Assembly: GCA_964603545.1 (NCBI GenBank)
Contig: CAZRVD010000001.1
Coordinates: 1,001-57,520, forward strand
Length of the DNA stretch: 56,520 bases
DNA from: an uncultured Candidatus Saccharibacteria bacterium
GTDB lineage: Bacteria > Patescibacteriota > Minisyncoccia > Phycocordibacterales > DATDWN01
Direction: 5' to 3'
A model generated the notes under the pieces. The model did not search any database. It was not told the DNA's origin and saw only the letters and a list, made by a program, of their open reading frames with translations. The position numbers were made by a program, and so were the translations under genes. This document shows positions 22,702-52,264 of the stretch, in pieces (positions within the stretch are counted from its first letter, which is position 1; the number at the start of each line of letters is the position of its first letter).

Positions 22702-22829
22702 ATTTAAACTAGGAAATTTGAGTGAAGTCCGAGACGGACAAGGAAAATAATTGGAGGCGTACACTTAGTACGATGAGAATTATTTTTTGAAGTCCAACAA
22801 AGGAATTCACCAAATTTAGTAGTTTAAAT
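22702..22829 (-). repeat. ERIC-like long-hairpin element, copy A
   Basis: Terminal IR ATTTAAACTA/TAGTTTAAAT; minus-strand core CTCATCGTAC-TAAGT-GTACGCCTCC; abuts the secG stop. Confidence 0.85.
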
Positions 22830-23068
22830 TAAAAAAGAAGACTGAAGGAAACAAGTACAAATAATATTGCCACCACTATAGTAGAAACAAAGATGAACTT
22901 CTCAGCACCTCTTTTTGTGTGAAATCCAGAAGAAAAACCGTCACCACCACCAAAAGCTCCGCCTAAGCCAGCTTCAGATTGTTGTAGGAGGATACCTCCT
23001 ATAAGTAGGACAGATAGCACTATCTGGACTATCGGTATTAACTGCGGGAAACTCTGAACAATACTCAT
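22829..23068 (-). CDS. secG: Preprotein translocase subunit SecG
   Basis: ILLQQSEAGLGGAFGG..TKRGAEK, two TMs; ATG 23068 preferred. Confidence 0.92.
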   Translation of the reverse strand: MSIVQSFPQLIPIVQIVLSVLLIGGILLQQSEAGLGGAFGGGDGFSSGFHTKRGAEKFIFVSTIVVAILFVLVSFSLLF

Positions 23069-23203
23069 AATGGATAATAGCATACTATTTATCACAAAAA
23101 TAAGCAAATACTATTAGGGGGTCAAATTTGGGGGTTTTCCTCCAAAATGTGCTATAATGCAACTTAATCATTAATAAAATTATTAAACAATTATAAAAAC
23201 ATT

Positions 23204-23800
23204 ATGGAACCACAGACACAACAATCATCATTTTTAGGTAGAAACATAAAGTGGGTAGTTGTTTTAGGTGTTATCGTACTTTTGGCTATCTGGGTAGTTG
23301 GTAAAAACAATAGCTTCGTAAGAGCTGGTGAAGCTATCACCGCACAGTGGGCACAGGTAGAGAACCAGTACCAAAGACGGTTCGATCTTATCCCAAACAT
23401 TGTAAACACGGTAAAAGGTGTAGCAAAACAAGAGACAGATGTTTTCACAGCAATAGCAGATGCCAGAACAAGATACTCCGGAGCAACTACTCCAAGCGAG
23501 AAAGCACAAGCAGCAACACAAGTTGAAGGGGCGCTAGGCAGGCTCCTCGTAATTGCCGAAGCGTATCCAGTACTTCAATCTTCACAAGCTTACAGAGACT
23601 TGATCACTTCTCTTGAGGGAACAGAAAACAGAATTTCAGTTGAGAGAATGAAATACAACGATTTGGTCCGTGCGTTTAATACAAACGTAAAGACATTTCC
23701 GTCTTCACTTGTGGCTAAGCTCTTTAGTGTAGAGGCAGGAGCATACTTTGATGTGCCAACAGAAAATCAGACAGCTCCAACCGTTGATTTCGTTAACTAA
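23204..23800 (+). CDS. lemA: LemA family protein
   Basis: WAQVENQYQRRFDLIPN, EAYP.L, LEGTENRISVER..YN. Confidence 0.95.
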   Translation: MEPQTQQSSFLGRNIKWVVVLGVIVLLAIWVVGKNNSFVRAGEAITAQWAQVENQYQRRFDLIPNIVNTVKGVAKQETDVFTAIADARTRYSGATTPSEKAQAATQVEGALGRLLVIAEAYPVLQSSQAYRDLITSLEGTENRISVERMKYNDLVRAFNTNVKTFPSSLVAKLFSVEAGAYFDVPTENQTAPTVDFVN

Positions 23801-23926
23801 ATTTTCAAATCTGGCGAACTCCTAGTCTCGGACTTGAAAATGTTCGTCACCTTACTACTTGTAAGGCTTCTCTCATTTTCAAGTCCTCAACGTCGGATTT
23901 CATCCAGATTATGAAAGTTTGAAAAT
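23801..23926 (+). repeat. ERIC-like long-hairpin element, copy B
   Basis: ATTTTCAAA/TTTGAAAAT ends; GGACTTGAAAATG/CATTTTCAAGTCC stem; core GTCACCTTAC-TACTT-GTAAGGCTTC; starts right after the lemA stop. Confidence 0.85.
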
Positions 23927-23942
23927 CTAAAAGGCGGAAATT

Positions 23943-24809
23943 ATGAAAAAATTCCTTACACTACTTCTGTTACTTCCTGTTTTTTCATCTGCCTTTACTG
24001 TGCCCGAAAGACCAACTGGTTTTGTTCAAGACTATGCGGGGATACTAAGCGGTGAACAAGTGGTGACTCTTGAAGCTAAGATTTCAAACTTTGAAAAAAG
24101 TTCTACGAACGAAATTGCCGTTGTTACAATAAATTCTCTTGACGGAGATACTATAGAAAATGTTGCACAGGAAATATTTACAAAATGGGGGATAGGAAAG
24201 AAAGACAAAAACAATGGAGTTCTTTTTTTGATTTCTTTAACTGACAGAAAAACTCGTATTCACACAGGCTATGGTGTTGAGGGAGATTTAACAGATCTTG
24301 GTACATCTTACATTCAGCAAGACATTGTCACTCCAGCTTTTCGTGAAGGGAAATATTTTGAGGGAATAAATAGCGCAGTAGATAAAATGATAGAGGCACT
24401 TGGTGGAAACAATATCGTTCCAGAAGGTTATTCTGAAAGTAGCAGTTCAAATCTTCCTTGGGAATTTATTTTCTTCATTATATTTGTTTTGCTTCAGTGG
24501 GTTGGAGCGATTCTTTCCAGATCCAAATCTTGGTGGCACGGGGGAGTTCTCGGAGGAATTCTTGGTGGAGGAATTATCTGGTGGTTTGGAATTGCAATAC
24601 TTTTTGGAACATTTATTTTTGTTATCCTCATTCTTCTCGGACTACTCTTTGACTACATTGTTTCGAAAACATATGCAAAAGCAAAAGCTACAGGACATTA
24701 CCCTTGGTTTATTGGTGGAGGTGGTCATGGAGGTGGTAGTTCCGGTGGAGGATTTGGTGGTTTTGGCGGGGGATCAAGTGGTGGAGGTGGTTCCAGCGGC
24801 TCTTGGTAG
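23943..24809 (+). CDS. TPM domain protein (YgcG-like)
   Basis: V.DYAG.L, WGIGKKDKNNGVL, GYGVEG.LTD, Gly-rich tail ending GSW. Confidence 0.92.
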   Translation: MKKFLTLLLLLPVFSSAFTVPERPTGFVQDYAGILSGEQVVTLEAKISNFEKSSTNEIAVVTINSLDGDTIENVAQEIFTKWGIGKKDKNNGVLFLISLTDRKTRIHTGYGVEGDLTDLGTSYIQQDIVTPAFREGKYFEGINSAVDKMIEALGGNNIVPEGYSESSSSNLPWEFIFFIIFVLLQWVGAILSRSKSWWHGGVLGGILGGGIIWWFGIAILFGTFIFVILILLGLLFDYIVSKTYAKAKATGHYPWFIGGGGHGGGSSGGGFGGFGGGSSGGGGSSGSW

Positions 24810-24810
24810 T

Positions 24811-24933
24811 AAAACAAGTAAAATTATCTCATCTGCGTTGTTGCTGTTCAATTTTGTTCACTCACCGTACTATCTGTACGGCTCATTCACAAAATCTTCA
24901 GCGCCTAGCATCTGAGGCAATTTTACTTGTTTT
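24811..24933 (+). repeat. ERIC-like long-hairpin element, copy C
   Basis: 15-bp terminal IR AAAACAAGTAAAATT/AATTTTACTTGTTTT; core CTCACCGTAC-TATCT-GTACGGCTC. Confidence 0.85.
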
Positions 24934-24973
24934 CGGTTTTTACAGTTTGATTTTTATGCTAGACTAAAAACAT

Positions 24974-25576
24974 ATGCAAGATGAATTTCACGAAAAATTA
25001 GAAAAAAGAGTTGCAGAACTTGAAGCTCTGATACATGAACTTGAGAAGGACCTTATCCACGACTCACTGACAGGTCTTCGAACTCGCGCATTTTTTGAAG
25101 AAGAGCTGGGTGTTTATTTAAAAGCCTTTACTACACTAGAAGCGGGGAAGAGACGGGAGTGGTTCGGATTTAAAACTCTGTCTTTTCTTTTTTTTGATAT
25201 TGATAACTTTAAAAAAATAAATGATACATATGGTCACTCCTATGGTGATGAAGTTCTACGCGAAATATCTAAAGTTATAAATAGAAGTGTTCGAGAGGGA
25301 GATACAGTTGCACGTTGGGGTGGTGAAGAAATAGTTGCATGTCTTTTGGGGGCAAATGAACAGGATGCAAGGGATAAGGCCCAGAGTATTCGAAAAGTTA
25401 TAGAAAAACTCACATTCACTAACGATGTTCTAAACATAACTGTTAGTGTAGGTGTAGCCACAAATTGGAAAGGCACGACTTTTTTGGAACTCATAGAGAG
25501 AGCCGACAAAGCTCTTTACCAAGCAAAAGAAAGTGGCCGAAACAAAGTAGTAGTGTATTCAGAAATCAAGGAGTAA
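24974..25576 (+). CDS. Diguanylate cyclase (GGDEF domain)
   Basis: DSLTGL, DIDNFKKINDTYGH..GD, RxxD I-site (REGD), RWGGEEI, ADKALYQAKESGRN. Confidence 0.92.
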   Translation: MQDEFHEKLEKRVAELEALIHELEKDLIHDSLTGLRTRAFFEEELGVYLKAFTTLEAGKRREWFGFKTLSFLFFDIDNFKKINDTYGHSYGDEVLREISKVINRSVREGDTVARWGGEEIVACLLGANEQDARDKAQSIRKVIEKLTFTNDVLNITVSVGVATNWKGTTFLELIERADKALYQAKESGRNKVVVYSEIKE

Positions 25577-25585
25577 AATATTGAT

Positions 25586-25945
25586 ATGGAAAAAGCTATA
25601 GAATTGGTAAGACAATTTCATCAAAAATTTCATGCTCCTGTTTTGGACAAACCATCCTTGATTCCTCAAGACCGTTCCGATTTAAGGTATAAACTCATGA
25701 AGGACGAAGTTGAAGAGTATCCTTTGGGTGTAAAAAATAAAGATTTAGAAAATATAGCAAAAGAGCTGGCAGATGTTTTATATGCTGTTTATGGAACTAT
25801 TTTGGAACATGGTTTACAAGATAAATTTGAAGAAATTTTTGAAGAGGTTCATAAATCAAATATGAGTAAGGATTATCATGAATATAAAATGATAAAAGGC
25901 CCAAGTTATTTTAAGGCAGATGTTAAGAAGATTTTAGATAAGTAA
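25586..25945 (+). CDS. MazG-like/PRA-PH nucleotide pyrophosphohydrolase
   Basis: EVEEY, KELADVLY, EVHKSNMSK, KGPSY. Confidence 0.85.
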   Translation: MEKAIELVRQFHQKFHAPVLDKPSLIPQDRSDLRYKLMKDEVEEYPLGVKNKDLENIAKELADVLYAVYGTILEHGLQDKFEEIFEEVHKSNMSKDYHEYKMIKGPSYFKADVKKILDK

Positions 25946-26004
25946 ATATTTTGATTTTCTTGAAAAAATAAGAAATAAGTATAGTATCTATTTCGGAGTG
26001 GCTC

Positions 26005-26538
26005 ATGAACAACGTCTACGCGGAGGTTCGGAACAGGGCAACACTGATTTTCCCTGTGAAGGGTCGTAAAGTGGTGCTTGGTAAGAAAAGAAGCAAGGTC
26101 TGCGCCGGGTACCTCAACGGTTACGGTGGCAAGGTGGAGGAAGGAGAGAGTATCCACGAGTGTGCAATGCGCGAGTTTACGGAGGAGACTGGTGGAGCCG
26201 TCATCATTCCTCACTTCCTCAACTGTGTCGGCGTGCTTTACGTTCGCAACCACGATGCAGAGGGTAAGGTCATCTACGAGTGCGATGTGTACACCTACTT
26301 GGTGTACATGTGGGATGGCGGGATTGTCTCCACTCCAGAAATGGAGGATCCTGCCCTGTATTCGTTTGAGGATCTTGGTGAGCAGAACATCACGATTCAC
26401 GACAAGGTCTGGATGCCCGAAATTCTGGAAAACGGAAAACGTGTCCGCGTCCACCTAGATTTCGAGTCCGATGGTAAGACATTGCGTGACTTGGTCCGTC
26501 TTGATTTCATTTCCCGTGATTCCAAGAACCTTTACTGA
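26005..26538 (+). CDS. NUDIX hydrolase (MutT/MTH1-like), GC-rich gene
   Basis: NGYGGKVEEGESIHECAMREFTEETG Nudix box; GGAG SD. Confidence 0.85.
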   Translation: MNNVYAEVRNRATLIFPVKGRKVVLGKKRSKVCAGYLNGYGGKVEEGESIHECAMREFTEETGGAVIIPHFLNCVGVLYVRNHDAEGKVIYECDVYTYLVYMWDGGIVSTPEMEDPALYSFEDLGEQNITIHDKVWMPEILENGKRVRVHLDFESDGKTLRDLVRLDFISRDSKNLY

Positions 26539-26576
26539 GAGGAGGTGGCGCGCAAATTCGTCACCTCCTCGTTTTT
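26539..26576 (+). terminator. Intrinsic terminator
   Basis: GAGGAGGTGGCG..CGTCACCTCCTC followed by GTTTTT. Confidence 0.8.
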
Positions 26577-26599
26577 AATATAAAATGAACTAGAATTTT

Positions 26600-26689
26600 G
26601 GAGAAATGCGAGAGTGGTTTAATCGGCAGTCCTGGAAAGACTGTGTATCGGAAACGGTACCAAGGGTTCGAATCCCTTTTTCTCCGCCA
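26600..26689 (+). tRNA. tRNA-Ser(GGA)
   Basis: Acceptor GGAGAAA/TTTCTCC, anticodon arm CAGTC-CTGGAAA-GACTG, long variable arm, AAGGG-TTCGAAT-CCCTT, discriminator G, encoded CCA. Confidence 0.97.
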
Positions 26690-26695
26690 AAAAAT

Positions 26696-27622
26696 ATGAA
26701 ACCTATTCTCGTAACATGTTATGTAAATCCAGATTTGGACGGTGTCGCCGGGGCTATTGGCTATGCAGAGTTTTTGTCTAAGACTGGGAAGAATTGCGAA
26801 GTCGGAATCGTTGGTGAACCACACGATGAAGCAAAATACATTTTAGATCGTTTTGGTTTCTCTTATCCAAAATCAATACAAAATGCAGATGACTATGAGG
26901 AAGTTATACTAGTAGACGCAAGTGACGTAAATGGACTTGAAGGCAAGATAGCTCCCGAAAAAGTTATTGAAATTATTGACCATAGAAAAGCGCACGAGGC
27001 AGGTAAATTTCCAAATGCAAAAGTACAGATAGAACTTGTTGGAGCTGCTGCAACTTTGGTTGCGGAAAAGTTTATGCAAGATGGTGTTGAGATTTCCAAA
27101 GAGTCCGCAACTCTTATTTATGGTGCTATACTTTCCAACACACTCAATTTCAAGGGCACAGTAACAACTGACCGAGACAAGAAATCTGCTGAATGGTTAA
27201 ATCAAACATTAAAGCTCCCTGAAAATTTTTGGAAAGAACTTTTTATCGCCAAGTCCGACCTCTCTGGGCCCAAGCTTGCAGAAAGGATTGAAGGGGATTT
27301 CGCCTGGTTTGTATTGGGGGATAAGAGAGTCGGCATCGCCCAAATTGAAATAATCGGAGCAAAGAAACTTGTCGAAGAAAGAGAAGTAGAAATTCTCCAA
27401 ACACTAAACAAAATCAAAAATAAGATGAATTTGGATTTTGTATTCCAAAACACTATTGAATTAGAAGATGCCAAAACATTTTTTGTTACAGAAGACGCTC
27501 CAACTAAAGCTTTAATAGAGAAAATACTAAATGTTAAATTTTCTGGTAATATAGCGGAAAGGCCAAGTTTAATAATGCGCAAGCAAATAGTACCCTTACT
27601 AAAAGAGGAATTAGAAAAATAA
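26696..27622 (+). CDS. ppaC: Mn-dependent (DHH family) inorganic pyrophosphatase
   Basis: NPDLDG, ILVD, IIDHR, ILSNTLNF..TT..D, MRKQIVP; start moved to ATG 26696 after the tRNA. Confidence 0.85.
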   Translation: MKPILVTCYVNPDLDGVAGAIGYAEFLSKTGKNCEVGIVGEPHDEAKYILDRFGFSYPKSIQNADDYEEVILVDASDVNGLEGKIAPEKVIEIIDHRKAHEAGKFPNAKVQIELVGAAATLVAEKFMQDGVEISKESATLIYGAILSNTLNFKGTVTTDRDKKSAEWLNQTLKLPENFWKELFIAKSDLSGPKLAERIEGDFAWFVLGDKRVGIAQIEIIGAKKLVEEREVEILQTLNKIKNKMNLDFVFQNTIELEDAKTFFVTEDAPTKALIEKILNVKFSGNIAERPSLIMRKQIVPLLKEELEK

Positions 27623-27623
27623 T

Positions 27624-28034
27624 ATGGCAGATTATTCAAAAAACTTAATTAAAGATTACAAATACTGGAGTGTTTATATTCACGAAAATCAAGGGATTTT
27701 GGGCAGAACCTATGTTTGGTGTAATAGAGAAGACGCATTAGATTTGCCTGATGCCACAGAAGAAGAACAAAAAGAATTGTTTTTAGTTCTTCAAGAAATG
27801 GAAAAGGTTTTAACAAAAACATTTAGTCCAGACATGTTTAACTATGCTTTTCTCGGTAACGAGACTCATCATCTTCACGGACATATACTTCCTCGATATT
27901 CAAAACCCGTAGAATTTAATGGTCAGACTTTTATTGATAAAAACTGGGGACATAATTACAAAACCGATCCAAGTTTTATTACTTCTCCTGAATTATTAGA
28001 AGCTGTAAAGAAAAATATTAAAGATAATTTATGA
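27624..28034 (+). CDS. HIT family hydrolase
   Basis: LGN..HHLHGHILPRY. Confidence 0.9.
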   Translation: MADYSKNLIKDYKYWSVYIHENQGILGRTYVWCNREDALDLPDATEEEQKELFLVLQEMEKVLTKTFSPDMFNYAFLGNETHHLHGHILPRYSKPVEFNGQTFIDKNWGHNYKTDPSFITSPELLEAVKKNIKDNL

Positions 28035-28579
28035 CAGTACACATTACATACTTCGTACACGGGACAACAATGGATAACGAGAAAAAAATTTCATCGGGTT
28101 GGTCCGACGTTGAACTTTCCGATCTTGGAATACAGCAGTCAATTGCGCTAAAGGAAAAAACAAAAGATAAAAAGTTTGATGTAGTTTTTTGTTCTGACTT
28201 ACAACGCGCGATAAAGTCAGCAGAGCTTGCTTGGGGCGGAATGCACGAAATCATTCCAGACAAAAGATTGCGCGAATGCAATTATGGAAAACTGAACGGT
28301 GCTGCATCTGCAATAGTTGAACCAATGCAAGAAGAAGAATGTATTCTAAAGCCATTTCCAGAAGGGGAGAGTTATGAAGACGTAAAAGCTCGAATGGCTG
28401 ATTTTCTAGAATCTCTCAAAAAGAATTATGACGGAAGAAATGTTGCGATCGTTGGTCATAAAGCACCACAACTTTCTCTAGATGTTTTAATCCATGGTAA
28501 AACTTGGAAACAAGCACTCGCAGAAGATTGGCGAAAAACCCACTCCTGGAAACCCGGCTGGGATTATGAGTTGGAATAA
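28031..28579 (+). CDS. Histidine phosphatase family protein
   Basis: FVHG.T (RHG variant), SDLQRA, LRECNYG, GES, VGH. Confidence 0.85.
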   Translation: MTVHITYFVHGTTMDNEKKISSGWSDVELSDLGIQQSIALKEKTKDKKFDVVFCSDLQRAIKSAELAWGGMHEIIPDKRLRECNYGKLNGAASAIVEPMQEEECILKPFPEGESYEDVKARMADFLESLKKNYDGRNVAIVGHKAPQLSLDVLIHGKTWKQALAEDWRKTHSWKPGWDYELE

Positions 28580-28590
28580 TTATTCCTAAC

Positions 28591-28609
28591 CAAATCCCTC
28601 CGTCTCCGC
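28591..28609 (+). other. tRNA-Ser-like 3'-end remnant (att-like direct repeat)
   Basis: CAAATCCCTCCGTCTCCGC versus tRNA end CGAATCCCTTTTTCTCCGC (15/19 identical). Confidence 0.6.
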
Positions 28610-28640
28610 ATAGAATTAGACAATTTGTTATAATACCCAC

Positions 28641-29426
28641 ATGAAATACGTATATATAATTTTAGGACTACTTATTATCGGTGGAGCGTTTCTCTTTTAT
28701 AAAAGCGATAAAACAAATACAAACATGACACAAAACGAAAATGTAGAAACAAAACAAAGTCCGGTAACAGTAACACCAATCTCGCACGCATCAGCAGTTT
28801 TGAAATGGGATGATAAAATTATTTACATGGATCCTGTCGGTGAAGCCGAGGATTATGCCAGTCAACCAAAAGCCGACATCATTTTGATAACAGATATTCA
28901 CCAAGATCATTTTGATCCAGACACTATTTCTGCAGTTTCAAAAGAATCTACAACCGTTGTTGTTCCTCAAGCTGTTTTCAATTTATTAAAAACAAAACCA
29001 AACAAAGTCGTGGGTTTAGTCGTTTTAAACAATGGTGAAAAAATTATTCCTCCAAACTTTTCTGCAAATATAGAAGCAATGCCAATGTACAACCTCCCTG
29101 AAAAAACAGATGCTTTTCACACAAAAGGTAGAGGAAACGGCTACCTTGTAGAAAAAGATGGTTTCAGAGTTTACATCGCGGGGGACACAGAGGGCATTCC
29201 AGAAATGCGCGCTTTGACTGACATAGATATTGCTTTTGTTCCAATGAATCTACCGTACACTATGAGCGTACAAGATGCAGCGGAGGCAGTTCTCGCTTTC
29301 AAACCAAAACAAGTTTGGCCATACCACTACCGTGGTCCTGATGGTTTAAGTGACGTCGGTCTTTTCAAATCCCTGGTCAACGCTGGTAATCCAAGTATCG
29401 AGGTAGTCCTAGGTAAGTGGTATTAA
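28641..29426 (+). CDS. Membrane-anchored MBL-fold metallo-hydrolase
   Basis: HAS, DP, ITDIHQDH, YIAGDT, PYTM, PYHY. Confidence 0.88.
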   Translation: MKYVYIILGLLIIGGAFLFYKSDKTNTNMTQNENVETKQSPVTVTPISHASAVLKWDDKIIYMDPVGEAEDYASQPKADIILITDIHQDHFDPDTISAVSKESTTVVVPQAVFNLLKTKPNKVVGLVVLNNGEKIIPPNFSANIEAMPMYNLPEKTDAFHTKGRGNGYLVEKDGFRVYIAGDTEGIPEMRALTDIDIAFVPMNLPYTMSVQDAAEAVLAFKPKQVWPYHYRGPDGLSDVGLFKSLVNAGNPSIEVVLGKWY

Positions 29427-29453
29427 ATTCCAAAATTTTACAAACTGGATTCT

Positions 29454-29556
29454 TGTGCCGGGGTGGGGTGAGAAGTGATGGGTATCACTTCGCAAGGCCG
29501 GAGGCTGATGAGCCGAGGCGGGGTCGCGGAATTTTTCAGTAGAAAAATATTTGTGA
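29454..29556. other. GC-rich multi-hairpin element at the left edge of the defence island; minus strand ends like a tRNA-Leu 3' end
   Basis: Hairpins GAAGTGAT-GGGT-ATCACTTC, GGCT-GATG-AGCC, TCGCGGAATTTTTC-AGTA-GAAAAATATTTGTGA; reverse strand ends CCCCA-CCCCGGC-A. Confidence 0.5.
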
Positions 29557-43212: not shown

Positions 43213-43524
43213 ATGGCAAAGAAGCTATACGTAGGAGGAATTTCTTATTCAACAACTAACGATGGATTGAAAGATGCATTCGCACAAGTTGGAGAAGTTA
43301 TCAAGGCAGATATTATTATGGACAAGATGACAGGCCGATCAAAAGGATTCGGTTTCGTTGAGTTCGCAAACGATGCAGATGCTGATGCAGCAATCGCAAA
43401 GTGGAACGGTCAAGAACTTGATGGACGAAAACTAACAGTTAATGAAGCTCGACCAATGGAACCAAGAGCACCTAGAACTGGAGGATTCGACCGAGGTAAT
43501 GACCGAGGTGGCCGAACATGGTAA
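43213..43524 (+). CDS. RRM RNA-binding protein
   Basis: KLYVGG (RNP2), KGFGFVEF (RNP1), LTVNEARP, RGG tail. Confidence 0.95.
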   Translation: MAKKLYVGGISYSTTNDGLKDAFAQVGEVIKADIIMDKMTGRSKGFGFVEFANDADADAAIAKWNGQELDGRKLTVNEARPMEPRAPRTGGFDRGNDRGGRTW

Positions 43525-43650
43525 TAAAAGATTTCCAAATTTAGCGAATTTCTTTGTTGGGATTCAAATTTGATCGTCATCGTACTAAATGTACGTTTCC
43601 TCTCAAATTTTTCTCCCGCCTCGAACTTCATCTAAATTTGAAAACTTTTA
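43525..43650 (+). repeat. ERIC-like long-hairpin element, copy D
   Basis: TAAAAG/CTTTTA ends; core GTCATCGTAC-TAAAT-GTACGTTTCC; begins right after the RRM stop. Confidence 0.85.
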
Positions 43651-43667
43651 GAATCTCAATTCTAACA

Positions 43668-44440: not shown

Positions 44441-47191
44441 ATGAGTATCACCGTAACAAGACACGATGGAACAAGAGAACCGTTCAATGCGGACAAAATA
44501 AATCGTTCTATTGAAAGAGCTTGTTACGGACTTACAGATCCAATTTCCAAAGTTACTCAAATCGCAAGTGAGACACAACTTACGCTTTACGATGGTATAA
44601 CAAAAGATGAAATGGATCAGGCAACGATAAACGCTGCTATCCAAAATATCAAAGAAGACATTGCTTACGATAAAATTGCCACAAGACTTTTTCTAAAAGT
44701 TATTTATAGAAGAATTATTGGAGATTATTCTCACGACAAAGATACTTTAGTTAAACTTCATAAAGAATTTTTTATAAAATATATTGAAAAAGGAATTAGT
44801 CTTGGTCGACTAGATAAAAGAATGAAAGAAAAGTTTGATTTACAAAAACTTTCTGAAGCTATTAAACTAGATCGCGATGAACTTTTTGAATATACAGGAC
44901 TTTCAACTGTTGCATCTTTGTATTTATTAAAAGATGAAAAAGAAAACTATCTAGAAACTCCTCAAATGTTTTGGATGAGAATCGCCATGGGACTTTCTTA
45001 CAACGAAAGTGATCCAACAGCTTGGGCAATTTCTTTCTACAACAAAATGTCCAAGATGGAGTATGTTGCGGGGACTTCAACAAATCTTGGTGCGGGAACT
45101 TCTAGACCAGCACTTTCTAATTGCTTTCTGATGGAAATGCATGATGACATGGAGCATATTGCAAAAACAGTTGCAGATACAATGCTTATATCAAAAGCAA
45201 CCGGAGGCATAGGTCTCTCTCTTACTAAACTACGTGCTTCTGGCTCGCCATTAAAATCTAATAATGGAGCTTCTTCTGGACCAACACCTTTTGCAAAAAT
45301 TATTGATACTGCTATTCGGGCTATTATGCGTGCGGGCAAACGAAGAGGCGCCCTATGTTTTTATATGGAGCCTTGGCACTTGGATTTCCATGAATTTCTG
45401 GACTGGAAGCACAATGCAGGTGATGACCATATGAGAATGCGTACAGCAAACACAGCAGCCTTTATACCAGATGAGTTTATGAATAGGGTCAGTAAGGGTG
45501 AAGAGTGGTATATGTTTGACCCAGCAGAGACAGGGGATTTAAACGAGTTATACGGACAAGCTTTTTCTGTAAGGTACAGAGAATACGTAGAAAAGGCGGA
45601 TAATGGGGAACTGCGAGCATACAAAAAAATGCCAGCCACAGAGCTTTACAGAAAAATGTTAGTTTCTCTTCAATCTACTTCACACCCATGGCTTGTTTGG
45701 AAAGACTCTATAAATGTTCGTGCTCTAAACAACAACACTGGTACTATTCATATGTCTAACTTGTGTACGGAGATTTGTTTGCCACAAGACAGAGAGAACA
45801 TTGCTGTCTGTAACCTAGCATCACTTAATCTCGCACCACATATTCAAAACAAAGAAGTAAATTGGTCTAAACTAGAAGAAACTGTTCGTTTAGCTGTCCG
45901 TCAGCTAGATAATCTTATTGATATAAATCAACTTCCGATTCCTGAAGCGGTAAAATCTGACAGCGAAAATCGTGCAGTAGGACTAGGCGTGATGGGACTC
46001 TCTGATGTGCTCGAGCAACTTGGTATGGCATACGATTCTACTCACGCTTGGGATTTCACAGACAGAATATTTGAATTTATTTCTTACATGGCTATAGATG
46101 AAAGCGCGAACCTTGCTCAAACTCGTGGTTCATATAAAAATTTTGAGGGTTCTGGTTGGTCAAAAGGTTTAGTGCCGATAGATACATTGGATAGATTAGA
46201 AAAAGAAAGAGGCGTTCCGCTTACAGTTGCAAAAGAGTCTAGACACAAAGGTTTGGATTGGAATATTCTTCGGGCAAAAGTTAAGAAGGGAATGAGAAAT
46301 GCAACTCTTATGGCTGTTGCACCGAATGCAACTATTGGTCTTGTAGCTGGAACTGTTCCTGGTATTGATCCACGTTTCGCTCAAGTTTTTTCTAGAAACA
46401 CTCTTTCAGGAAAATACTTAGATATAAATCATAACTTGGTAAAAGATCTTACAAACTTAGGAATTTGGGAAAAAGTAAAAGGTCAGATTATAGAGTTTCA
46501 AGGAGATATTTCTGGAATTGAAGAAATTCCACAGCATATAAAAGATGTTTATAAAACTTCTTTCACCACATCTCCATACGCGTTTATAGAAGTAGCAGCG
46601 CGCGCACAAAAATGGATTGATCAGGCACTCTCTAGAAATATGTATCTAGAAACTCGTGACATAGATGAAACAATGAAGATTTACACAACTGCATGGGGTA
46701 AGGGTGTAAAATCAACATACTACCTACACATGAAGCCAAGGCATACTGCGGAGCAAAGTACAACTGATGTAAACAAAGCCACAAAAATTGGTAAAGTTGG
46801 TTTCGGAGCTTTGAATTTTGCAAATTCTCCAGCATTCTCTGCACCACTTCAGAAGTCTTTTAACGTTGGAGTAACGCCAGAGTCCACACCTGTTATAGCA
46901 CCTTCTGTTGAACCAGTGGTAAATAGTAGCCAAGCTGTTTTGGATGTATTAGATACTCCCAAAGATGAAGAGATACTTGTTTCCACAACAACTTATAAAC
47001 CGAAAGTTGACGCTACTCCCTCAGTTTCTGCTATAGTGGAACAAGTTGCTGTAGAAGAAGTATTTGTTCCATCCGTAAAAGTTGAGGAGAGAAGTGAATA
47101 CAAACCTCTTCAAAGTGTTAGTGTAAACAATAGTAATATTATTGGTCCTGAGGACCCGGCCGATGCTAACATTTGCATCAGCTGTCAGTAA
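44441..47191 (+). CDS. nrdA: Ribonucleoside-diphosphate reductase alpha subunit
   Basis: ATP cone, SNCF, SNLCTEI, CNLAS, APNAT, STYY, terminal CISCQ. Confidence 0.95.
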   Translation: MSITVTRHDGTREPFNADKINRSIERACYGLTDPISKVTQIASETQLTLYDGITKDEMDQATINAAIQNIKEDIAYDKIATRLFLKVIYRRIIGDYSHDKDTLVKLHKEFFIKYIEKGISLGRLDKRMKEKFDLQKLSEAIKLDRDELFEYTGLSTVASLYLLKDEKENYLETPQMFWMRIAMGLSYNESDPTAWAISFYNKMSKMEYVAGTSTNLGAGTSRPALSNCFLMEMHDDMEHIAKTVADTMLISKATGGIGLSLTKLRASGSPLKSNNGASSGPTPFAKIIDTAIRAIMRAGKRRGALCFYMEPWHLDFHEFLDWKHNAGDDHMRMRTANTAAFIPDEFMNRVSKGEEWYMFDPAETGDLNELYGQAFSVRYREYVEKADNGELRAYKKMPATELYRKMLVSLQSTSHPWLVWKDSINVRALNNNTGTIHMSNLCTEICLPQDRENIAVCNLASLNLAPHIQNKEVNWSKLEETVRLAVRQLDNLIDINQLPIPEAVKSDSENRAVGLGVMGLSDVLEQLGMAYDSTHAWDFTDRIFEFISYMAIDESANLAQTRGSYKNFEGSGWSKGLVPIDTLDRLEKERGVPLTVAKESRHKGLDWNILRAKVKKGMRNATLMAVAPNATIGLVAGTVPGIDPRFAQVFSRNTLSGKYLDINHNLVKDLTNLGIWEKVKGQIIEFQGDISGIEEIPQHIKDVYKTSFTTSPYAFIEVAARAQKWIDQALSRNMYLETRDIDETMKIYTTAWGKGVKSTYYLHMKPRHTAEQSTTDVNKATKIGKVGFGALNFANSPAFSAPLQKSFNVGVTPESTPVIAPSVEPVVNSSQAVLDVLDTPKDEEILVSTTTYKPKVDATPSVSAIVEQVAVEEVFVPSVKVEERSEYKPLQSVSVNNSNIIGPEDPADANICISCQ

Positions 47192-47221
47192 GTTTATTTA
47201 TCAAAGTAATAATTTAATTAC

Positions 47222-47340
47222 GAACTTTCAGATTTGAGCCAAGTTCTAGGAGAAGGAGAAAAATAATTGGAGGCGTATAAGCATACGATGAGAATTATTT
47301 TTTGAACTTCGACAAAGAAATTGGCCAAATGTGGAAGTTC
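47222..47340 (-). repeat. ERIC-like long-hairpin element, copy E
   Basis: GAACTT/AAGTTC ends; shares AAAATAATTGGAGGCGTA..TACGATGAGAATTATTTTTTGAA with copy A. Confidence 0.85.
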
Positions 47341-47353
47341 TAAACAAAAACAC

Positions 47354-48376
47354 ATGGCACTTATAGGAAAACCATCACCAACCGACATGAACCTTCACCC
47401 ACTAAACTACAAGTGGGCATATGACTTGTATAATCAGGCGGTAAGAAACACATGGTTTCCACACGAAATTGCACTCAAAGAAGATTTGGATGATTTTGAA
47501 AAAATGACAGAGGACGAGAAACATGCAGTGAAATTTCTCATGGCTTTCTTTAATCCCGCAGAACTCATTGTGAATCGTTCTATTGCTCTAGGTATGTATC
47601 CTTACCTAAAAGCTCCAGAGTGTCATTTATACTTGGCAAAAGTTATGTGGGAAGAAGCAAACCACTGCGTTGCTTTTGAGTACGTACTAGAAACTTTTCC
47701 TTTTGATAAAGAAACTATTTTCAACACCCACCTAGAAGTTCCTTCTATGCTTGCTAAGGAAGCATACATAAATAAATATCTGACTAGGATGACGGAGGAG
47801 AAGCTAGACATTTCAACCGTTGACGGAAAAAAAGATTTTATCAGAAATCTTGTCGCTACAAATATTGTTATGGAAGGTATTTGGTTCTATTCTGGTTTTA
47901 TGGTCGCACTCTCTTTTAGACAGAGAAATCAACTTAGAAACTTTGGTTCAATGATTAACTGGGTGCTTCGTGACGAAAGCTTGCACTTAAAATTTGGAAT
48001 AAATCTCGTACATAACGTATTAGAGGAAAACACAGAACTATTAACAGAAGAATTTGCCACAGAGATTAGGAATATCATAATTGAGGGAGTAGATTTGGAA
48101 ACTGCATATAATAAAGACCTTTTCCCAAATGGAATTTTAGGACTTAACGCAGATTATGTAAACCAGTACGTGCAATACGTTGCAGACAGGAGACTGGCAG
48201 AACTTGGAATGCCAAAATACTACAACGTAACAAACCCAGCAAAGTGGATGTCTACAGCAACAGACGTGTTTGAACTTGTGAATTTCTTTGAGTCACAGAA
48301 CACTTCATACGAGGTGGATGGACATGCAAGCACAAAGGCTAAAAAGGATGACACCATGCCTCCATTTAAGGAATAA
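47354..48376 (+). CDS. nrdB: Ribonucleotide reductase beta subunit, class Ic (R2c)-like
   Basis: FFNPAE, EEANHCVAF, MEGIWFYSGF, RDESLH, NFFE; ATG 47354. Confidence 0.92.
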   Translation: MALIGKPSPTDMNLHPLNYKWAYDLYNQAVRNTWFPHEIALKEDLDDFEKMTEDEKHAVKFLMAFFNPAELIVNRSIALGMYPYLKAPECHLYLAKVMWEEANHCVAFEYVLETFPFDKETIFNTHLEVPSMLAKEAYINKYLTRMTEEKLDISTVDGKKDFIRNLVATNIVMEGIWFYSGFMVALSFRQRNQLRNFGSMINWVLRDESLHLKFGINLVHNVLEENTELLTEEFATEIRNIIIEGVDLETAYNKDLFPNGILGLNADYVNQYVQYVADRRLAELGMPKYYNVTNPAKWMSTATDVFELVNFFESQNTSYEVDGHASTKAKKDDTMPPFKE

Positions 48377-48406
48377 TTAACTAACTCGGACCTTGTTCTA
48401 CACAGG

Positions 48407-48432
48407 AACCGTCGGCCTTGGTCGGCGGTTTT
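48407..48432 (+). terminator. Intrinsic terminator after nrdB
   Basis: AACCGTCGGCC-TT-GGTCGGCGGTTTT. Confidence 0.7.
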
Positions 48433-48467
48433 CCTATGTCTCTGGATTTGTTATAATTTATCTACGT

Positions 48468-48494
48468 TTCATTATTCATTATTCATTATTCATT
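48468..48494 (+). repeat. Heptamer tandem repeat (TTCATTA)x~4 just before the gap ATG
   Basis: TTCATTA TTCATTA TTCATTA TTCATT. Confidence 0.85.
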
Positions 48495-48496
48495 TT

Positions 48497-49504
48497 ATGA
48501 TAAAAGTTGCCATAAACGGTTTTGGAAGAATTGGTAGAGCCTTTCTTAAAGAATCTTGGGAAAGTGGTGAGCTAGAAGTTGTTGCTGTAAATGACCTTGG
48601 TAATGTAGACAACATGGCTTACTTACTAAAATACGATACCGTTTATAAAACTTGGAAGCACGACGTTGGGGTCAAGGACGGGAATCTTGTTATAGATGGC
48701 CGAACTGTTAAATTTGTATCTGAAAAAGAACCAACTAAACTTCCTTGGAAGGATTTAGGTATTGATGTTGTCGTTGAATCTACTGGTCTTTTCACTGCCT
48801 ATGATAAAGCCAGCGTCCACTTGGAAGCTGGAGCAAAGAAAGTTGTGATTTCCGCTCCAGCAAAAGGTGAAGGTGTGGGCGAGACGATTCTTATGGGTGT
48901 AAATGAAGAAAAGTTCGGCACTTGCAATGTTACTTCAAACGCATCTTGCACAACAAACGCAGCTTCTCCACTTATCGCAATACTCGATGAAAATTTTGGT
49001 ATCGAAAAAGCAATATTAAATACTGTTCATGGTTACACCGCTTCGCAGTCTCTCGTTGATGGTCCATCTAAAAAAGATTTAAGAGAAGGAAGAGCTGCTG
49101 CCCAAAATATTGTTCCATCTTCAACAGGTGCTGCTATTGCCGTGACAAAAGCATTTACAAAACTAGAGGGACTTTTTGACGGTATTTCCATTCGTGTTCC
49201 TGTTCCAGCCGGTTCTATTGTGGACGTAACTTTTATTTCTAAAAAGGAAACTACAGCTGAAGAAGTAAATGAGGTATTAAGAAGGGAAGCAAAAAATAAT
49301 AGGTGGCAGGATACTTTCAGTGCTACGGATGAAGAGCTTGTTTCTTCAGATATTTTAGGAAGTAAATTCGGTTCTATCGCAGATTTAAAAATGACTAGAG
49401 TAGTTGGTGGAAATTTAGTGAAGGTTATGGCTTGGTATGACAACGAAGCGGGGTATACTCATACACTTATCAACCATGTAATCAAAACAGCAAAATCGAT
49501 ATAA
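48497..49504 (+). CDS. gap: Glyceraldehyde-3-phosphate dehydrogenase
   Basis: INGFGRIGR, SNASCTTN, WYDNE. Confidence 0.97.
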   Translation: MIKVAINGFGRIGRAFLKESWESGELEVVAVNDLGNVDNMAYLLKYDTVYKTWKHDVGVKDGNLVIDGRTVKFVSEKEPTKLPWKDLGIDVVVESTGLFTAYDKASVHLEAGAKKVVISAPAKGEGVGETILMGVNEEKFGTCNVTSNASCTTNAASPLIAILDENFGIEKAILNTVHGYTASQSLVDGPSKKDLREGRAAAQNIVPSSTGAAIAVTKAFTKLEGLFDGISIRVPVPAGSIVDVTFISKKETTAEEVNEVLRREAKNNRWQDTFSATDEELVSSDILGSKFGSIADLKMTRVVGGNLVKVMAWYDNEAGYTHTLINHVIKTAKSI

Positions 49505-49508
49505 ATTT

Positions 49509-49775
49509 ATGTTAAATACTAAAAAATCTGCATCTATCGCACTTTCAGTTTTTATAACAATCAATATCATTGCTGCTTTTTATTGCGTTGCATATCTCTA
49601 TCCAGTTTTTTTTGTTTTATTAATAATACAGATTTATTTATTACTCAAAACATTAAAACAGTTTAATTTGACAAGTTTTGTGAGAATTTCATTAGCGTCA
49701 GTTGTTGGAACATTGCTTTTGTTATTACCACTTATTGTGACTAGCTTGTTTGGGATAAGTTGCCCACAAATATAA
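49509..49775 (+). CDS. Small hypothetical membrane protein
   Basis: 3 hydrophobic segments; tight operonic spacing. Confidence 0.55.
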   Translation: MLNTKKSASIALSVFITINIIAAFYCVAYLYPVFFVLLIIQIYLLLKTLKQFNLTSFVRISLASVVGTLLLLLPLIVTSLFGISCPQI

Positions 49776-50018
49776 ATGAAAAAAGTTTTATTAATTATTA
49801 TAATCATATTGATAATCTGTACAGGATATTTTTTTCTTAATTATAAAATAGAAACAGTTTGTTTCGGTGACGTGTGTCCTGATAATGGGGGGACATATGT
49901 TTTTTATCGAGAAAAATTAACAGAGGAAGAGTGTTTAGCCCAAGGAGATTATCCAGTGGTGGGAATTGGTTGGTCAAGAGTATATGCTGGATGTTCCCCA
50001 ATAAACTATAGTAAATGA
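49776..50018 (+). CDS. Small membrane-anchored Cys-rich protein
   Basis: TM followed by CFGDVCP..EEC..YAGC. Confidence 0.6.
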   Translation: MKKVLLIIIIILIICTGYFFLNYKIETVCFGDVCPDNGGTYVFYREKLTEEECLAQGDYPVVGIGWSRVYAGCSPINYSK

Positions 50019-50464
50019 AAATATATATTGGATCAGATCATGCGGGGTTTGGGGTTAAAGGGGAACTCATAGAGTACCTTAAGACTTTACCTTATGAATG
50101 CTACGACTGTGGTCCACATGAGTATAATCATGAAGATGATTATCCAGACTACATTTCTCTTGTTGCCAAAGAAGTCTCGGAAGATCCAGAAAACTCTCGC
50201 GGAATAATTTTAGGTTTTTCTGGTCAAGGTGAAGCAATGGTTGCAAACAGGTTTCCAAATGTTCGCTGTGCTGTGTTTTACGGAGGAACAAAACATATTC
50301 TCACTTTGTCTCGTGAGCACAACGACGCTAATATGCTCTCTATTGGTGCACATTTTGTAACAACACAGGAGGCGAAATCGGCTGTAGAATTATGGCTTCA
50401 TACAGATTTTACTAATGAGGAGCGTCACATTAGAAGAATTAAAAAAATAGAACAATATAATTAA
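50015..50464 (+). CDS. rpiB: Ribose-5-phosphate isomerase B family
   Basis: GSDHAG, DYPD, REHNDAN, RH.RRI; SGQG where many RpiBs have CGTG. Confidence 0.9.
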   Translation: MKIYIGSDHAGFGVKGELIEYLKTLPYECYDCGPHEYNHEDDYPDYISLVAKEVSEDPENSRGIILGFSGQGEAMVANRFPNVRCAVFYGGTKHILTLSREHNDANMLSIGAHFVTTQEAKSAVELWLHTDFTNEERHIRRIKKIEQYN

Positions 50465-50571
50465 GATACGAATATGAAAACAATTCAAAACTACGAATAT
50501 ATACGAATAGAATATACGGATGATTTTATTCGTAGTCATTCGTTATTTATTTAGATTTTAATTCGTATCTT
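50463..50571. repeat. Imperfect palindrome built of TACGAAT / ATTCGTA units
   Basis: AAGATACGAAT..ATTCGTATCTT ends; 3-4 TACG(A/G)AT units, then 3 ATTCGT units. Confidence 0.7.
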
Positions 50572-50572
50572 T

Positions 50573-51241
50573 ATGAAAGTACTACCTGCAATAATTCCAA
50601 TAAACAAATCTCAGCTTGAGGAGGAGATAAAAAAAGTAAGTAGCTTTGCTGATTTAGTTCAGATAGATATTTCTGATGGAGTTTTTACAAACACACGAAC
50701 TTGGCCGTACAACGGACAAGATAGAGATTATTTTGAGGAGTTGACCAAACAGACAGAGGGTTGGCCTAAGTGGGAGGAAGTAGATATAGAGCTTCATTTG
50801 ATGGTTAAAAATCCAGAAGATGTATTAGACGAGTGGATATCTACAGGAGTGTCCGCAGTTGTTTGCCATATCGAGGCGACAGAAGATTTTCAAAAAGTTA
50901 TAGATATGTGCCGTGCTAAAAATGTTTCTGTGGGTGTTGCAATAAAACCAAACACAGATATTGAAAAAATAAAAGATTTTATAGAACAAGTAGATTTTAT
51001 TCAAGTCATGGGTTCAAATGATCTCGGCAGACACGGGGTTACATTAGATCCAAAAGCAATTGAAGTAATAAAATCATTGCAGAAGCTTTATCCTGAGAGT
51101 ATAATTGCTATTGATATTGGTGTAACAGAAGATACTGAAGATATTTTAATTTCTGCAGGAGCGGATAAAATAATATCTGGTGGGGCGATACTGAATTCAG
51201 AAGATCCGAGAGGAGTTTTTGAGTTTCTAAAATCTCATTAA
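50573..51241 (+). CDS. rpe: Ribulose-phosphate 3-epimerase
   Basis: QIDISDG, ELHLMV, QVMG, IDIG. Confidence 0.88.
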   Translation: MKVLPAIIPINKSQLEEEIKKVSSFADLVQIDISDGVFTNTRTWPYNGQDRDYFEELTKQTEGWPKWEEVDIELHLMVKNPEDVLDEWISTGVSAVVCHIEATEDFQKVIDMCRAKNVSVGVAIKPNTDIEKIKDFIEQVDFIQVMGSNDLGRHGVTLDPKAIEVIKSLQKLYPESIIAIDIGVTEDTEDILISAGADKIISGGAILNSEDPRGVFEFLKSH

Positions 51242-51242
51242 A

Positions 51243-52142
51243 ATGTTAAACAATTTAACAGACGACAAAATAACGTTCCTTACAGAAAAAGCCAAGGAGA
51301 TCAGAATTTCTATTATAGAGATGCTTGTTTCAGCTGGTTCGGGACACTCCGCGGGACCTCTTGGTATGGCAGATGTTTTCACTGCTCTATATTTTTATAT
51401 ACTCAAACACAATCCAAGAGACCCATTTTGGGAAGAACGAGACAGGCTTGTGCTTTCAAATGGTCATATAAATCCAGTACTCTACGCAACTTTGGCGCAT
51501 GCAGGGTATTTCAGAGTGGAAGAGCTTCTGACGCTTAGAAAATTCGGCACAAGACTGCAAGGTCATCCTCACAGAGAATTTTTACCAATTCTTGAAAACA
51601 GTTCTGGTCCACTTGGAGCTGGTCTTTCACAAGCTGTTGGTATGGCAATAGCGGATAGAATGGATAAGGGAAAAACATCGGATAGGTTTTTTTACTGCTT
51701 ACTTGGAGATGGAGAATTGGATGAAGGACAAAACTGGGAAGCAATAATGCTTGCTTCAAAAGAAAAACTTGGAAATCTTATCGCAATAGTTGATAGAAAC
51801 AATATACAACTAGATGGAAATACAGAAGATATTATGCCACTTGAGTCCTTAGTGCATAAATTTGAGGCTTTTGGTTGGCATGTGGAAGAAATAGATGGAC
51901 ACAACTTTGCTTCAATTGTTGAGTCTGTTGGACGAGCGCAAGCGGTATTTGATGGACCAAGCGTTATTATCGCCAGAACTATTCCAGGGAAAGGGGTTTC
52001 TTTTATGGAGCGTGACTATAAATGGCACGGCAATCCACCAGGAACAGAGCTTCCTGGTGAGCCACCCAAAGAAGAGCAGGCGAAAATTGCACTTCACGAT
52101 CTTCGAACATTGGGGGGTCAGATAACCGGTGAACATGAATAA
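51243..52142 (+). CDS. Transketolase N-terminal subunit
   Basis: SGH, LSNGH, LQGHP, GDGELDEG..WE..DRN. Confidence 0.93.
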   Translation: MLNNLTDDKITFLTEKAKEIRISIIEMLVSAGSGHSAGPLGMADVFTALYFYILKHNPRDPFWEERDRLVLSNGHINPVLYATLAHAGYFRVEELLTLRKFGTRLQGHPHREFLPILENSSGPLGAGLSQAVGMAIADRMDKGKTSDRFFYCLLGDGELDEGQNWEAIMLASKEKLGNLIAIVDRNNIQLDGNTEDIMPLESLVHKFEAFGWHVEEIDGHNFASIVESVGRAQAVFDGPSVIIARTIPGKGVSFMERDYKWHGNPPGTELPGEPPKEEQAKIALHDLRTLGGQITGEHE

Positions 52143-52264
52143 AACTTCCAAATTATGAACAATCTCATCGTCTAAATTTTAAAAATATTCGTCACCTTAC
52201 TACTTGTAAGGCTTCTCATCTTTTTAAAATTTATACGTGATCTCGTCCAAATTTGAAAGTTTTA
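52140..52264 (+). repeat. ERIC-like long-hairpin element, copy F
   Basis: TAAAACTT/AAGTTTTA ends overlapping the tkt-N TAA; core TTCGTCACCTTACTACTTGTAAGGCTTCTC identical to copy B. Confidence 0.85.

Follow-up and report, generated by a model that had tools for sequence, protein, structure and literature searches.

A dispersed family of long hairpins on stop codons of a groundwater Patescibacterium, and its likeness to enterobacterial repeats

The stretch analysed here, called the window throughout, comprises 56,520 nucleotides (nt) of the genome of a groundwater Patescibacterium (G000, C1:1001-57520; 672,023 nt in 12 contigs, 99.7% complete). It contains six intergenic elements, copies A to F, which an earlier note made from the letters alone had described as long hairpins related to the enterobacterial repetitive intergenic consensus (ERIC) and placed on stop codons. 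A covariance model, R1, was built from the six copies, and the window was searched with it, filters off. The result showed exactly six strong matches, at 22698-22833(-), 23791-23927(+), 24805-24940(+), 43521-43655(+), 47214-47348(-) and 52134-52270(+), scoring 99-136 bits; the next best match scored 23 bits. The copies and their neighbouring genes are as follows.

Copy A, 22702..22831, minus strand: sense of secG (open reading frame (ORF) 22829..23107, minus; SecG by Pfam), with the TAA stop (22829-22831) directly before the first paired base; R1 136.3 bits; fold -39.9 kcal/mol, z -9.4.
Copy B, 23798..23926, plus strand: starts on the TAA of lemA (23798-23800), with the TPM gene from 23943 (LemA and TPM by Pfam); R1 112.8 bits; fold -48.6 kcal/mol, z -8.7.
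Copy C, 24807..24933, plus strand: CTGCGTTGTTG subfamily; the TAG of the TPM gene (24807-24809) is followed by the element's own TAAAAC end; R1 115 bits; fold -43.7 kcal/mol, z -7.1.
Copy D, 43522..43650, plus strand: the TAA of an RRM_1 gene (43522-43524; RRM_1 by Pfam), then directly the element end TAAAAG; R1 135.7 bits; fold -34.9 kcal/mol, z -5.3.
Copy E, 47222..47340, minus strand: reversed, between nrdA (stop 47189-47191) and nrdB (ATG 47354; NrdA and NrdB by Pfam); R1 123.7 bits on the minus strand.
Copy F, 52140..52264, plus strand: its terminal TAA (52140-52142) is the stop of the gene for the transketolase N-terminal subunit (Transketolase_N, and Transket_pyr/Transketolase_C, by Pfam); R1 99 bits; fold -32.5 kcal/mol, z -8.9.

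The fold of each of the six copies is a single long hairpin with interruptions, its energy between -32.5 and -48.6 kcal/mol (z -5.3 to -9.4), and none of 200 shuffles was equally stable, so that the six long hairpins proposed earlier were borne out by both the model and the folding. When the copies were aligned in the orientation of the upstream gene (A and E reverse-complemented), mean column identity was 68%, and RNAalifold gave 41 pairs, 25 of them with a pair-keeping change on both sides, which bears out the compensatory base changes. The TCA before the apical stem, noted from the start, is invariant in all six (alignment columns T60, C61 and A62). R1 distinguishes the two strands clearly, the preferred strand scoring 99-136 bits and the opposite strand 17-44 bits.

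The names first given to the upstream genes agree with Pfam (SecG, LemA, TPM, RRM_1, NrdA/NrdB and Transketolase_N). Five copies are sense to the upstream gene and lie on or directly after its stop, and the copy between nrdA and nrdB is indeed reversed, starting about 30 nt past the nrdA stop. For this copy E the predicted fold is -33.8 kcal/mol on the family-sense strand and -46.8 kcal/mol on the strand of the nrd mRNA, which would thus carry the purine-rich, better-folding strand. The gene for the C-terminal transketolase subunit lies 3′ of copy F and its likely start is the ATG at 52291. Mechanical ORF calls put TTG/GTG starts of nrdB (47321) and of the C-terminal transketolase gene (52237) inside copies E and F; the in-frame ATGs at 47354 and 52291, just past the two copies, are more likely starts.

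The search of the whole genome with R1 gave 64 matches at E<=1, which reduce to 48 distinct places on 10 of the 12 contigs; 46 score at least 47 bits and two are weak (33 and 24 bits). Copies span 119-139 nt, each with one hairpin, and together the 48 places take up 6,587 of 672,023 nt, or 0.98% of the DNA. R1 matches were also present in 24/24 sampled genomes of the genus (5-52 matches each, both strands counted), in 43/151 genomes of the order representing 37/132 genera (E<=1e-5), and in 4/150 genomes from the rest of the phylum, three of them in one family and one in another; the distant copies retain the same structural plan. Genome contigs, one genome per species, were also scanned with the pattern of the apex, which gave at least 111 stretches, 80 of which were examined as loci. 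The hits were mostly in Patescibacteria records titled Zambryskibacteria, Paceibacterota and Parcubacteria, and nearly all of the Patescibacteria hits had an R1 match among the matches listed. Hits in other phyla (Lachnospiraceae, Rahnella, Neobacillus and others) had no R1 match among those listed, and the Rahnella hit sits in coding-like sequence. As a free-standing module the loose apex pattern gave only non-specific matches outside the family, and a scan of 2.9 million viral contigs for the core pattern gave one hit, without an R1 match. Records labelled 'Candidatus Saccharibacteria' were considered as a sign of a wider range and set aside; one such record shows, at identical coordinates, the match that a genome of this genus has. 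These results demonstrate a true dispersed family in a genome of the candidate phyla radiation (CPR), as the earlier note had supposed. Rfam at gathering thresholds found one tRNA only in the window, and at E<=10 it gave no match over 22600-25050, which holds three copies. In full-text searches, supplements not covered, no report was found of a MITE (miniature inverted-repeat transposable element), a repetitive extragenic palindrome (REP), a hairpin of two REPs (REPIN) or a REP-associated tyrosine transposase (RAYT) in CPR, Patescibacteria or Parcubacteria.

The pairing test used 106 copies, drawn from many genomes and brought into one alignment (A3) by the model. The results showed standard pairs in 89.3% of cells, compared with 67.0 +/- 0.4% when the 3′ partners were shuffled (reached by 0/500 shuffles) and 32-53% when the partners were slid by 1-3 columns. 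Both sides had changed in 39 of the 41 pairs (843 cells). The consensus apex reads TC.TCA-CCTTAC-loop-GTAAGG-CTC, with CGTAC/GTACG as a variant stem and CTCC after the 3′ apical strand, and CGTCA precedes the apical palindrome in 23 of the 48 genomic copies. Each arm has a conserved bulge, with the word C.T.GTT on the 5′ side and CCTCG on the 3′ side. The inverted-repeat arms end in 5′-TA(A/G)AAC...GTT(T/C)TA-3′; termini and arms vary among subfamilies, the variable arms still pair, and the apex is the conserved part. This combination is the opposite of what a MITE driven by a DDE transposase would conserve.

The stop codon is the usual place of the family. In 38/48 copies the element is sense to the upstream ORF, whose stop falls among the bases that open the match (offsets from -17 to +2, with a mode of -9), so that 38 of some 740 genes have a stop codon that the family either supplies or abuts. 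These stops are TAA in 26 cases, TAG in 12 and TGA in none, compared with 437/212/93 for TAA/TAG/TGA in the 742 genes of the genome. Arm pairing is 0.68, 0.71 and 0.92 at the three bases of the stop codon, ranges from 0.68 to 0.97 up to +7 and stays high to +9, and drops to 0.39, the chance level, at -1. Because pairing begins at the stop bases and is at chance level directly before them, the hairpin starts on the T of the TAA or TAG stop codon. An exact TA...TA pair was present in 14/38 copies, as scored in an automatic register with no near-identical empty site for comparison. In relatives, an ORF on the same strand terminates at this place in 57 of 75 distinct copies (TAA 44, TAG 12, TGA 1), and in 12/75 an ORF on the opposite strand terminates at the far end.

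What the orientation tracks is the gene rather than the strand of replication: sense copies are borne by both secG(-) and lemA(+), at a distance of 1 kb, and one convergent gene pair bears two sense copies, tail-to-tail. Copies antisense to a neighbouring gene never overlap its stop and lie 8-155 nt away, measured from the match ends. A scan of 738 stops found 37 long hairpins at 0-3 nt from the stop, compared with 5 at a control anchor; 21 of the 37 belong to this family and 16 to others, of which there are at least two. Since 16/37 belong to others, several hairpin families of this genome use the same stop-codon niche. The gene for RNase III (C1:79504-80196) itself bears a family copy on its stop codon (80190-80325), and in the two relatives compared (G002 and G007) no listed family match lies beside rnc.

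The two strands of the element differ. The opposite strand folds better in 48/48 copies, with a mean of -46.8 kcal/mol compared with -34.4 kcal/mol for the sense strand. The modelled pairs showed no G-U bias (170 G-U and 121 A-C), which places the asymmetry in the loops, and the unpaired columns of the sense strand consist of 32% C, 37% T, 21% A and 10% G. Because the loops are pyrimidine-rich, words resembling the Shine-Dalgarno (SD) sequence are few on this strand: over all 48 copies, the 4-mers GGAG, GAGG and AGGA add up to 5 on the sense and 162 on the opposite strand, the background in coding sequence being 1.9 per 135 nt. The counts hold in every subfamily. Asymmetry as a general trait of stop-codon hairpins was tried and rejected, since in the other families it was seen in only 9/16. 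An asymmetry linked to gene direction and to ribosome words is hard to explain by a role at the DNA level.

Copies within this genome are old: median identity to the nearest neighbour is 84%, and one pair reaches at least 95%. At the site after TPM (copy C), the elements of four species are 78-90% identical, copy C itself being 78-84% identical to the same-site copies of the three other species, while the TPM gene beside it is 65-73% identical overall and 44-49% at third positions. When the orthologues of site C are matched to the 48 copies, the one from the same site comes first or second. Either purifying selection acts on the resident copies or the site is refilled from conserved masters; the former is preferred here, as measured at one site only. 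In a comparison of the lemA-TPM spacer at 29 loci, the window's own and 28 relatives, the spacer is empty (7-18 nt) in six relatives, holds the family in four loci (the window and three relatives) besides one truncated remnant, holds a different hairpin family of about 130 nt in ten, and contains other palindromes or genes in the remaining loci. The sites after secG and TPM are also patchily occupied, and after secG the subfamilies differ between species. Such patchy occupancy is a signature of turnover, in species so distant that gain and loss are not distinguishable, and mobility is thus seen indirectly, in the variable occupancy of orthologous sites.

The context of the copies would require their transcription together with the genes. 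Because a copy separates nrdA from nrdB, and another the two halves of a split transketolase, read-through of the element appears necessary at these places. After 32 of the 38 sense copies comes a co-directional gene, and convergent gene ends account for 6/38 of them compared with 28% of gene ends genome-wide. Around the six window copies, promoter-like consensus sites were not above shuffles, and terminator-like sites were slightly but not significantly above them (4 vs 2.2 +/- 1.4; 9 vs 5.3 +/- 2.6). The hallmark of intrinsic terminators, a G+C-rich stem followed by a T run, is absent, the consensus scan flagging only the 5-bp apex of copy D. A search of 11 genomes of the genus found RNase III in 11/11, and neither an RNase E/G domain nor the RNA-binding domain of Rho in any (0/11 each). 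A look-up of sequencing runs that contain this sequence gave one DNA run, stored as contigs, and no RNA run.

Taken together, these results make it on balance probable that the elements are an old, ERIC-like hairpin family of MITE type, now kept as a co-transcribed RNA structure in 3′ untranslated regions and between cistrons, with its orientation fixed by selection. In the past the family may have spread by insertion at or just past TA-containing stop codons; in a genome with spacers of about 10 nt, stop-proximal sites would have been the only free DNA. The copies would now be part of the mRNA, sharing a transcript with the upstream gene and in most cases also with the downstream one, as an interrupted hairpin with the stop codon in or abutting its base and with C/U-rich loops free of SD-like words. 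It would be on this RNA form that selection acts to fix the orientation, as the reverse orientation would put a stronger hairpin with exposed GGAG-type words into the footprint of the terminating ribosome and be selected against, and the weak, pyrimidine-looped form would be tolerated or used. A likely role is in processing, stability or translational coupling of the flanking cistrons, and since RNase E and Rho were not found, RNase III would be the obvious candidate nuclease. The small RRM_1 protein whose gene (window 43213-43524) bears copy D on its stop codon is conceivable as a binding partner of the conserved loops, as a candidate only.

Several points weigh against this interpretation. 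Ten of the 48 copies lie outside the sense-at-stop rule, and the placement counts rest on greedy ORF calls made here, which dropped at least one true gene (nrdB). The strand counts (48/48 and 41/48) are not independent, as the copies share ancestry, and the separate cases of strand asymmetry are several subfamilies and ERIC only. The 106-copy alignment was fitted to the structure of the model and its copies are related; moreover, covariation does not separate an RNA hairpin from a DNA hairpin or a cruciform. The conservation across species comes from one site in four species and could reflect repeated re-insertion of a conserved master. Finally, no transposase, target-site duplication or near-identical empty allele was found, so the MITE origin is argued from anatomy and patchy occupancy only.

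The family was compared with ERIC. These elements of Enterobacterales, also known as the intergenic repeat unit (IRU) or RU-1, were reportedly described by Sharples and Lloyd in 1990 and by Hulton and colleagues in 1991, and De Gregorio and colleagues are said to have observed in 2005 that stop-codon-proximal ERICs favour one orientation. Passages of PMC2759123, PMC2229807 and PMC3184786 describe ERIC/IRU as an imperfect palindrome of about 127 nt lying next to genes, and PMC2229807, in the part concerned with Yersinia, reports ERICs as co-transcribed, with the orientation crucial for the effect on mRNA. The ERIC core given in the earlier note proved correct: the 20-nt core motif, used to locate the ERICs of Escherichia coli K-12, occurs there at 14 places with <=3 mismatches. 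These K-12 elements and the family have in common a length of about 127 nt, one long hairpin, the apex GTCA-C[T/G]TAC-loop-GTA[A/C]G-CTCC, its stem occurring in the same two variants, the arm words CGTTGG (5′) and CCGCCTTG (3′), and bulges of CGTTGG and CCGCCT[C/T]GA. As in the family, the reverse strand of ERIC folds better (13/14 K-12 copies) and SD-like words are few on the strand that abuts stop codons (3 vs 41 on the other); in five of the 14 cases the ERIC directly adjoins the stop of an upstream ORF on its own strand, with the motif oriented as in the family. ERIC is described with TA at its ends, and pairing in the family begins at the T of TAA or TAG. In contrast, the family belongs to another phylum, its arms are A+T-rich and unrelated in sequence, and its internal loop near the apex is larger (about 7x7 vs 3x3 nt). 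ERIC is regarded as restricted to Enterobacterales and relatives, whereas the hosts here are Patescibacteria, and the searched genomes of the genus yielded no RNase E, the enzyme suggested to act on ERIC.

The earlier proposal that the elements are ERIC-related therefore stands as regards length, apex, bulges, strand asymmetry and stop-abutting orientation, but no blastn, nhmmer or covariance-model match was significant. Similarity to ERIC by covariance model had been set beforehand as a test, and it failed: R1 found no ERIC in the whole of K-12, nor at the 14 ERIC loci with filters off. Copy B had no blastn match at E<=10 in 5,426 E. coli genomes, nhmmer of the family against ERIC gave nothing in either direction, and ERIC 7- to 10-mers were not enriched over a reversed control. 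A model of the apex only (R2) scored the ERIC cores at 7-15.5 bits, with a best E of 1.6 genome-wide in K-12. With a broad model (R3), the six best hits in the 14 ERIC loci were ERICs, full length and on the sense strand, at 11.5-18.3 bits, and its alignment for L087 has all three motifs in register; the same model gives unrelated hairpins 11-19 bits, the same range. Shuffle tests were more favourable. Apex-anchored windows beat mirrored shuffles in 36/48 copies (0/300 shuffles each), and the mean local alignment score to ERIC was 21.3 compared with 18.07 +/- 0.32 (0/100 shuffle sets), but the maximum score was reached by 7/100 shuffle sets, and as the copies are one lineage these tests amount to one comparison chosen after the fact. 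The findings indicate that the family is ERIC-like in build and behaviour, not a member. That its copies truly belong to the ERIC family, sharing ancestry with the enterobacterial ERIC/IRU through descent or horizontal transfer, is possible but doubtful; it would account for the common length, the apex with the same stem variants, the CGTTGG and CCGCCTTG words, the strand and stop-codon parallels, the shuffle results and the top R3 hits, and is opposed by the negative blastn, R1, nhmmer and k-mer searches, by the R2 best E and by R3 scoring ERICs like unrelated hairpins. Such homology would be compatible with a family kept as co-transcribed RNA structure.

The family has the traits of a MITE in being small and non-coding, in occupying 48 places of about 130 nt with arms that pair end to end, and in its presence/absence variation at orthologous sites. 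A trans-acting transposase from a parent insertion sequence with matching ends was not found. The statement that the window holds no mobilising enzyme was confirmed and extends to the whole genome for seven Pfam transposase/reverse-transcriptase families: a Pfam search of this 99.7%-complete genome, which left other transposase families unsearched, gave no hits for Y1_Tnp, DDE_3, DDE_Tnp_1, rve, TnpB zinc-ribbon or RVT_1. DDE_3 was found in 2/41 genomes of the genus. We regard it as unlikely that the copies are purely selfish MITEs, which would insert at TA in either direction, survive only in harmless positions between a stop and a ribosome-binding site, and be refilled from conserved masters. 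Much of the turnover would fit such elements, namely the lemA-TPM spacer that is empty in six relatives and differently filled elsewhere (29 loci), the different subfamilies after secG in different species, the spread from 5 to 52 matches among genomes of the genus, the 182-nt copy at C3:20126-20307, in which a further structured segment is inserted at the apex as a nested insertion, and the at least two other hairpin families that also start on stops (16/37). However, the seven transposase families are not found, the copies are old with one pair at or above 95%, so that fresh replacement is not evident, and the orthologues at site C rank first or second of 48 and surpass the identity of the neighbouring gene. 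About 1% of junk in a 0.67-Mb genome, across a whole order, would also be unexpected.

A movement by other enzymes was weighed in the same way. REP and REPIN resemble the family as hairpin-forming, vertically inherited, long-lived populations of repeats after genes, and CGTC-tagged palindromes are a described class of REP in the portion of PMC3733652 that treats them. About half of the copies carry such a CGTC word before the apical palindrome (CGTCA in 23/48), RAYT-like genes occur in half of the genus, and a conserved apex with variable termini is contrary to upkeep by a DDE transposase. The copies could accordingly be single-stranded DNA hairpins moved by RAYT-like HUH tyrosine transposases, the apex and the asymmetry reflecting recognition of a DNA strand. 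Y1_Tnp was indeed found in 21/41 genomes of the genus, with up to nine genes per genome, mostly of 205-240 aa (for example L204:2322-2945, minus strand, and L205:2439-3113, plus strand), and four scanned proteins match NCBIfam REP_Tyr_transpos best, at 63-75 bits (E 1e-17 to 1e-21), under the curated cut-off of 80. In this genome, by contrast, Pfam gave no Y1_Tnp hit and tblastn with the proteins of five relatives a best E of 0.058, yet the copy number is among the highest. Matches average about 22 in genomes that have a Y1 gene and in those that have none (25 genomes scored for both), and 13 loci around Y1 genes contained three family hits, none in a flanking pattern. A RAYT gene flanked by repeats, the mark of REPIN-RAYT systems, was thus not seen, there being no RAYT in the genome and no link to copy number; REPs are units of 20-40 bp and REPINs two inverted REPs, whereas the family has one small palindrome at the apex of a 130-nt hairpin; and the orientation tracks the gene rather than the replication strand. 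A REPIN-like nature is therefore very unlikely. Still less credit, indeed hardly any, can be given to the reading as transcription terminators or attenuators standing in for Rho. The RNA-binding domain of Rho was not found in any of the 11 genomes, the hairpins come immediately after genes and have GTTTT at the end of the 3′ arm, but a G+C-rich stem with a T run is lacking, terminator-like sites are not significantly enriched, copies sit inside the nrdA-nrdB and transketolase pairs, and in 32/38 cases a co-directional gene follows.

Among other known systems, the Correia elements of Neisseria (NEMIS) are similar MITE-sized hairpins with inverted-repeat arms next to genes. They measure 100-155 bp and are co-transcribed, and their RNA hairpins are proposed RNase III substrates, according to passages of PMC2229807; that nuclease is present in the genus of the family. 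Parts of PMC3184786 describe Correia elements as carrying promoters and a site for integration host factor (IHF), many lying 5′ of genes. The family is set apart by description, as it has no promoter consensus above chance and 38/48 copies are on stop codons. A reading as integron attC sites was also tried and rejected: the sole tyrosine recombinase in the genome is Xer-like (best XerD/XerC, far below the cut-offs for integron integrases), and the copies are dispersed over 10/12 contigs. An attC site is an imperfect 57-141-nt palindrome that directly follows an ORF in a fixed orientation, keeps its structure rather than its sequence and has one better-folding strand, and its core sites read RYYYAAC / GTTRRRY. 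The copies of the family, in contrast, are dispersed after housekeeping genes with no cassette array, and their ends, TA(A/G)AAC / GTT(T/C)TA, do not fit these core sites.

The genomes of Patescibacteria (CPR) rank with the smallest and most streamlined known, and repeats would be expected to have been purged, yet about 1% of this genome is one hairpin family. A family kept as co-transcribed RNA structure would point to gene control by a layer of cis-acting RNA in organisms that have not yet been grown alone and in which neither Rho nor RNase E was found. The parallels with ERIC in a distant phylum make the question of ERIC-type function testable by comparison, the features common to two unrelated hosts being the likeliest to matter. 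A further, quite unlikely idea is that ERIC and the Patescibacteria family are two branches of ancient cross-phylum RNA modules anchored on stop codons, with a conserved apex and anti-Shine-Dalgarno-like loops read by a universal machine. If so, the reader might be the terminating ribosome, the 3′ end of the 16S rRNA or RNase III, and the arms would need only to pair; the module would set the output of the upstream and downstream cistrons, and the copies would be domesticated cis-regulators supplying the stops of about 5% of genes, not junk DNA. In practical terms, 130-nt hairpin repeats are a marker to be watched for, as they can break assemblies and mislead gene callers, as with the starts called inside copies E and F.

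The intergenic DNA of this genome is crowded with other families of long-hairpin repeats, including composite and nested forms. Single-linkage clustering groups 88 intergenic regions together, and the present family occurs in only 38 of them. One hairpin of another repeat family lies in the window at 50462-50572 (plus strand; TAAGATACGAATATG...) and starts on the TAA of an RpiB-like ORF (50015..50464); about ten related intergenic regions cluster with it in the genome. A third family is represented by a 161-nt hairpin at C2:62954-63114 (TAAAATCTC...GAGATTTTA), the ends of which give TAA stops to both of two convergent genes. Lastly, a short A+T-rich palindrome at 53273-53336 of the window, which scores 23 bits with R1 on both strands, lies between the convergent ORFs 52237..53289(+) and 53320..54321(-) and may be a two-way terminator.

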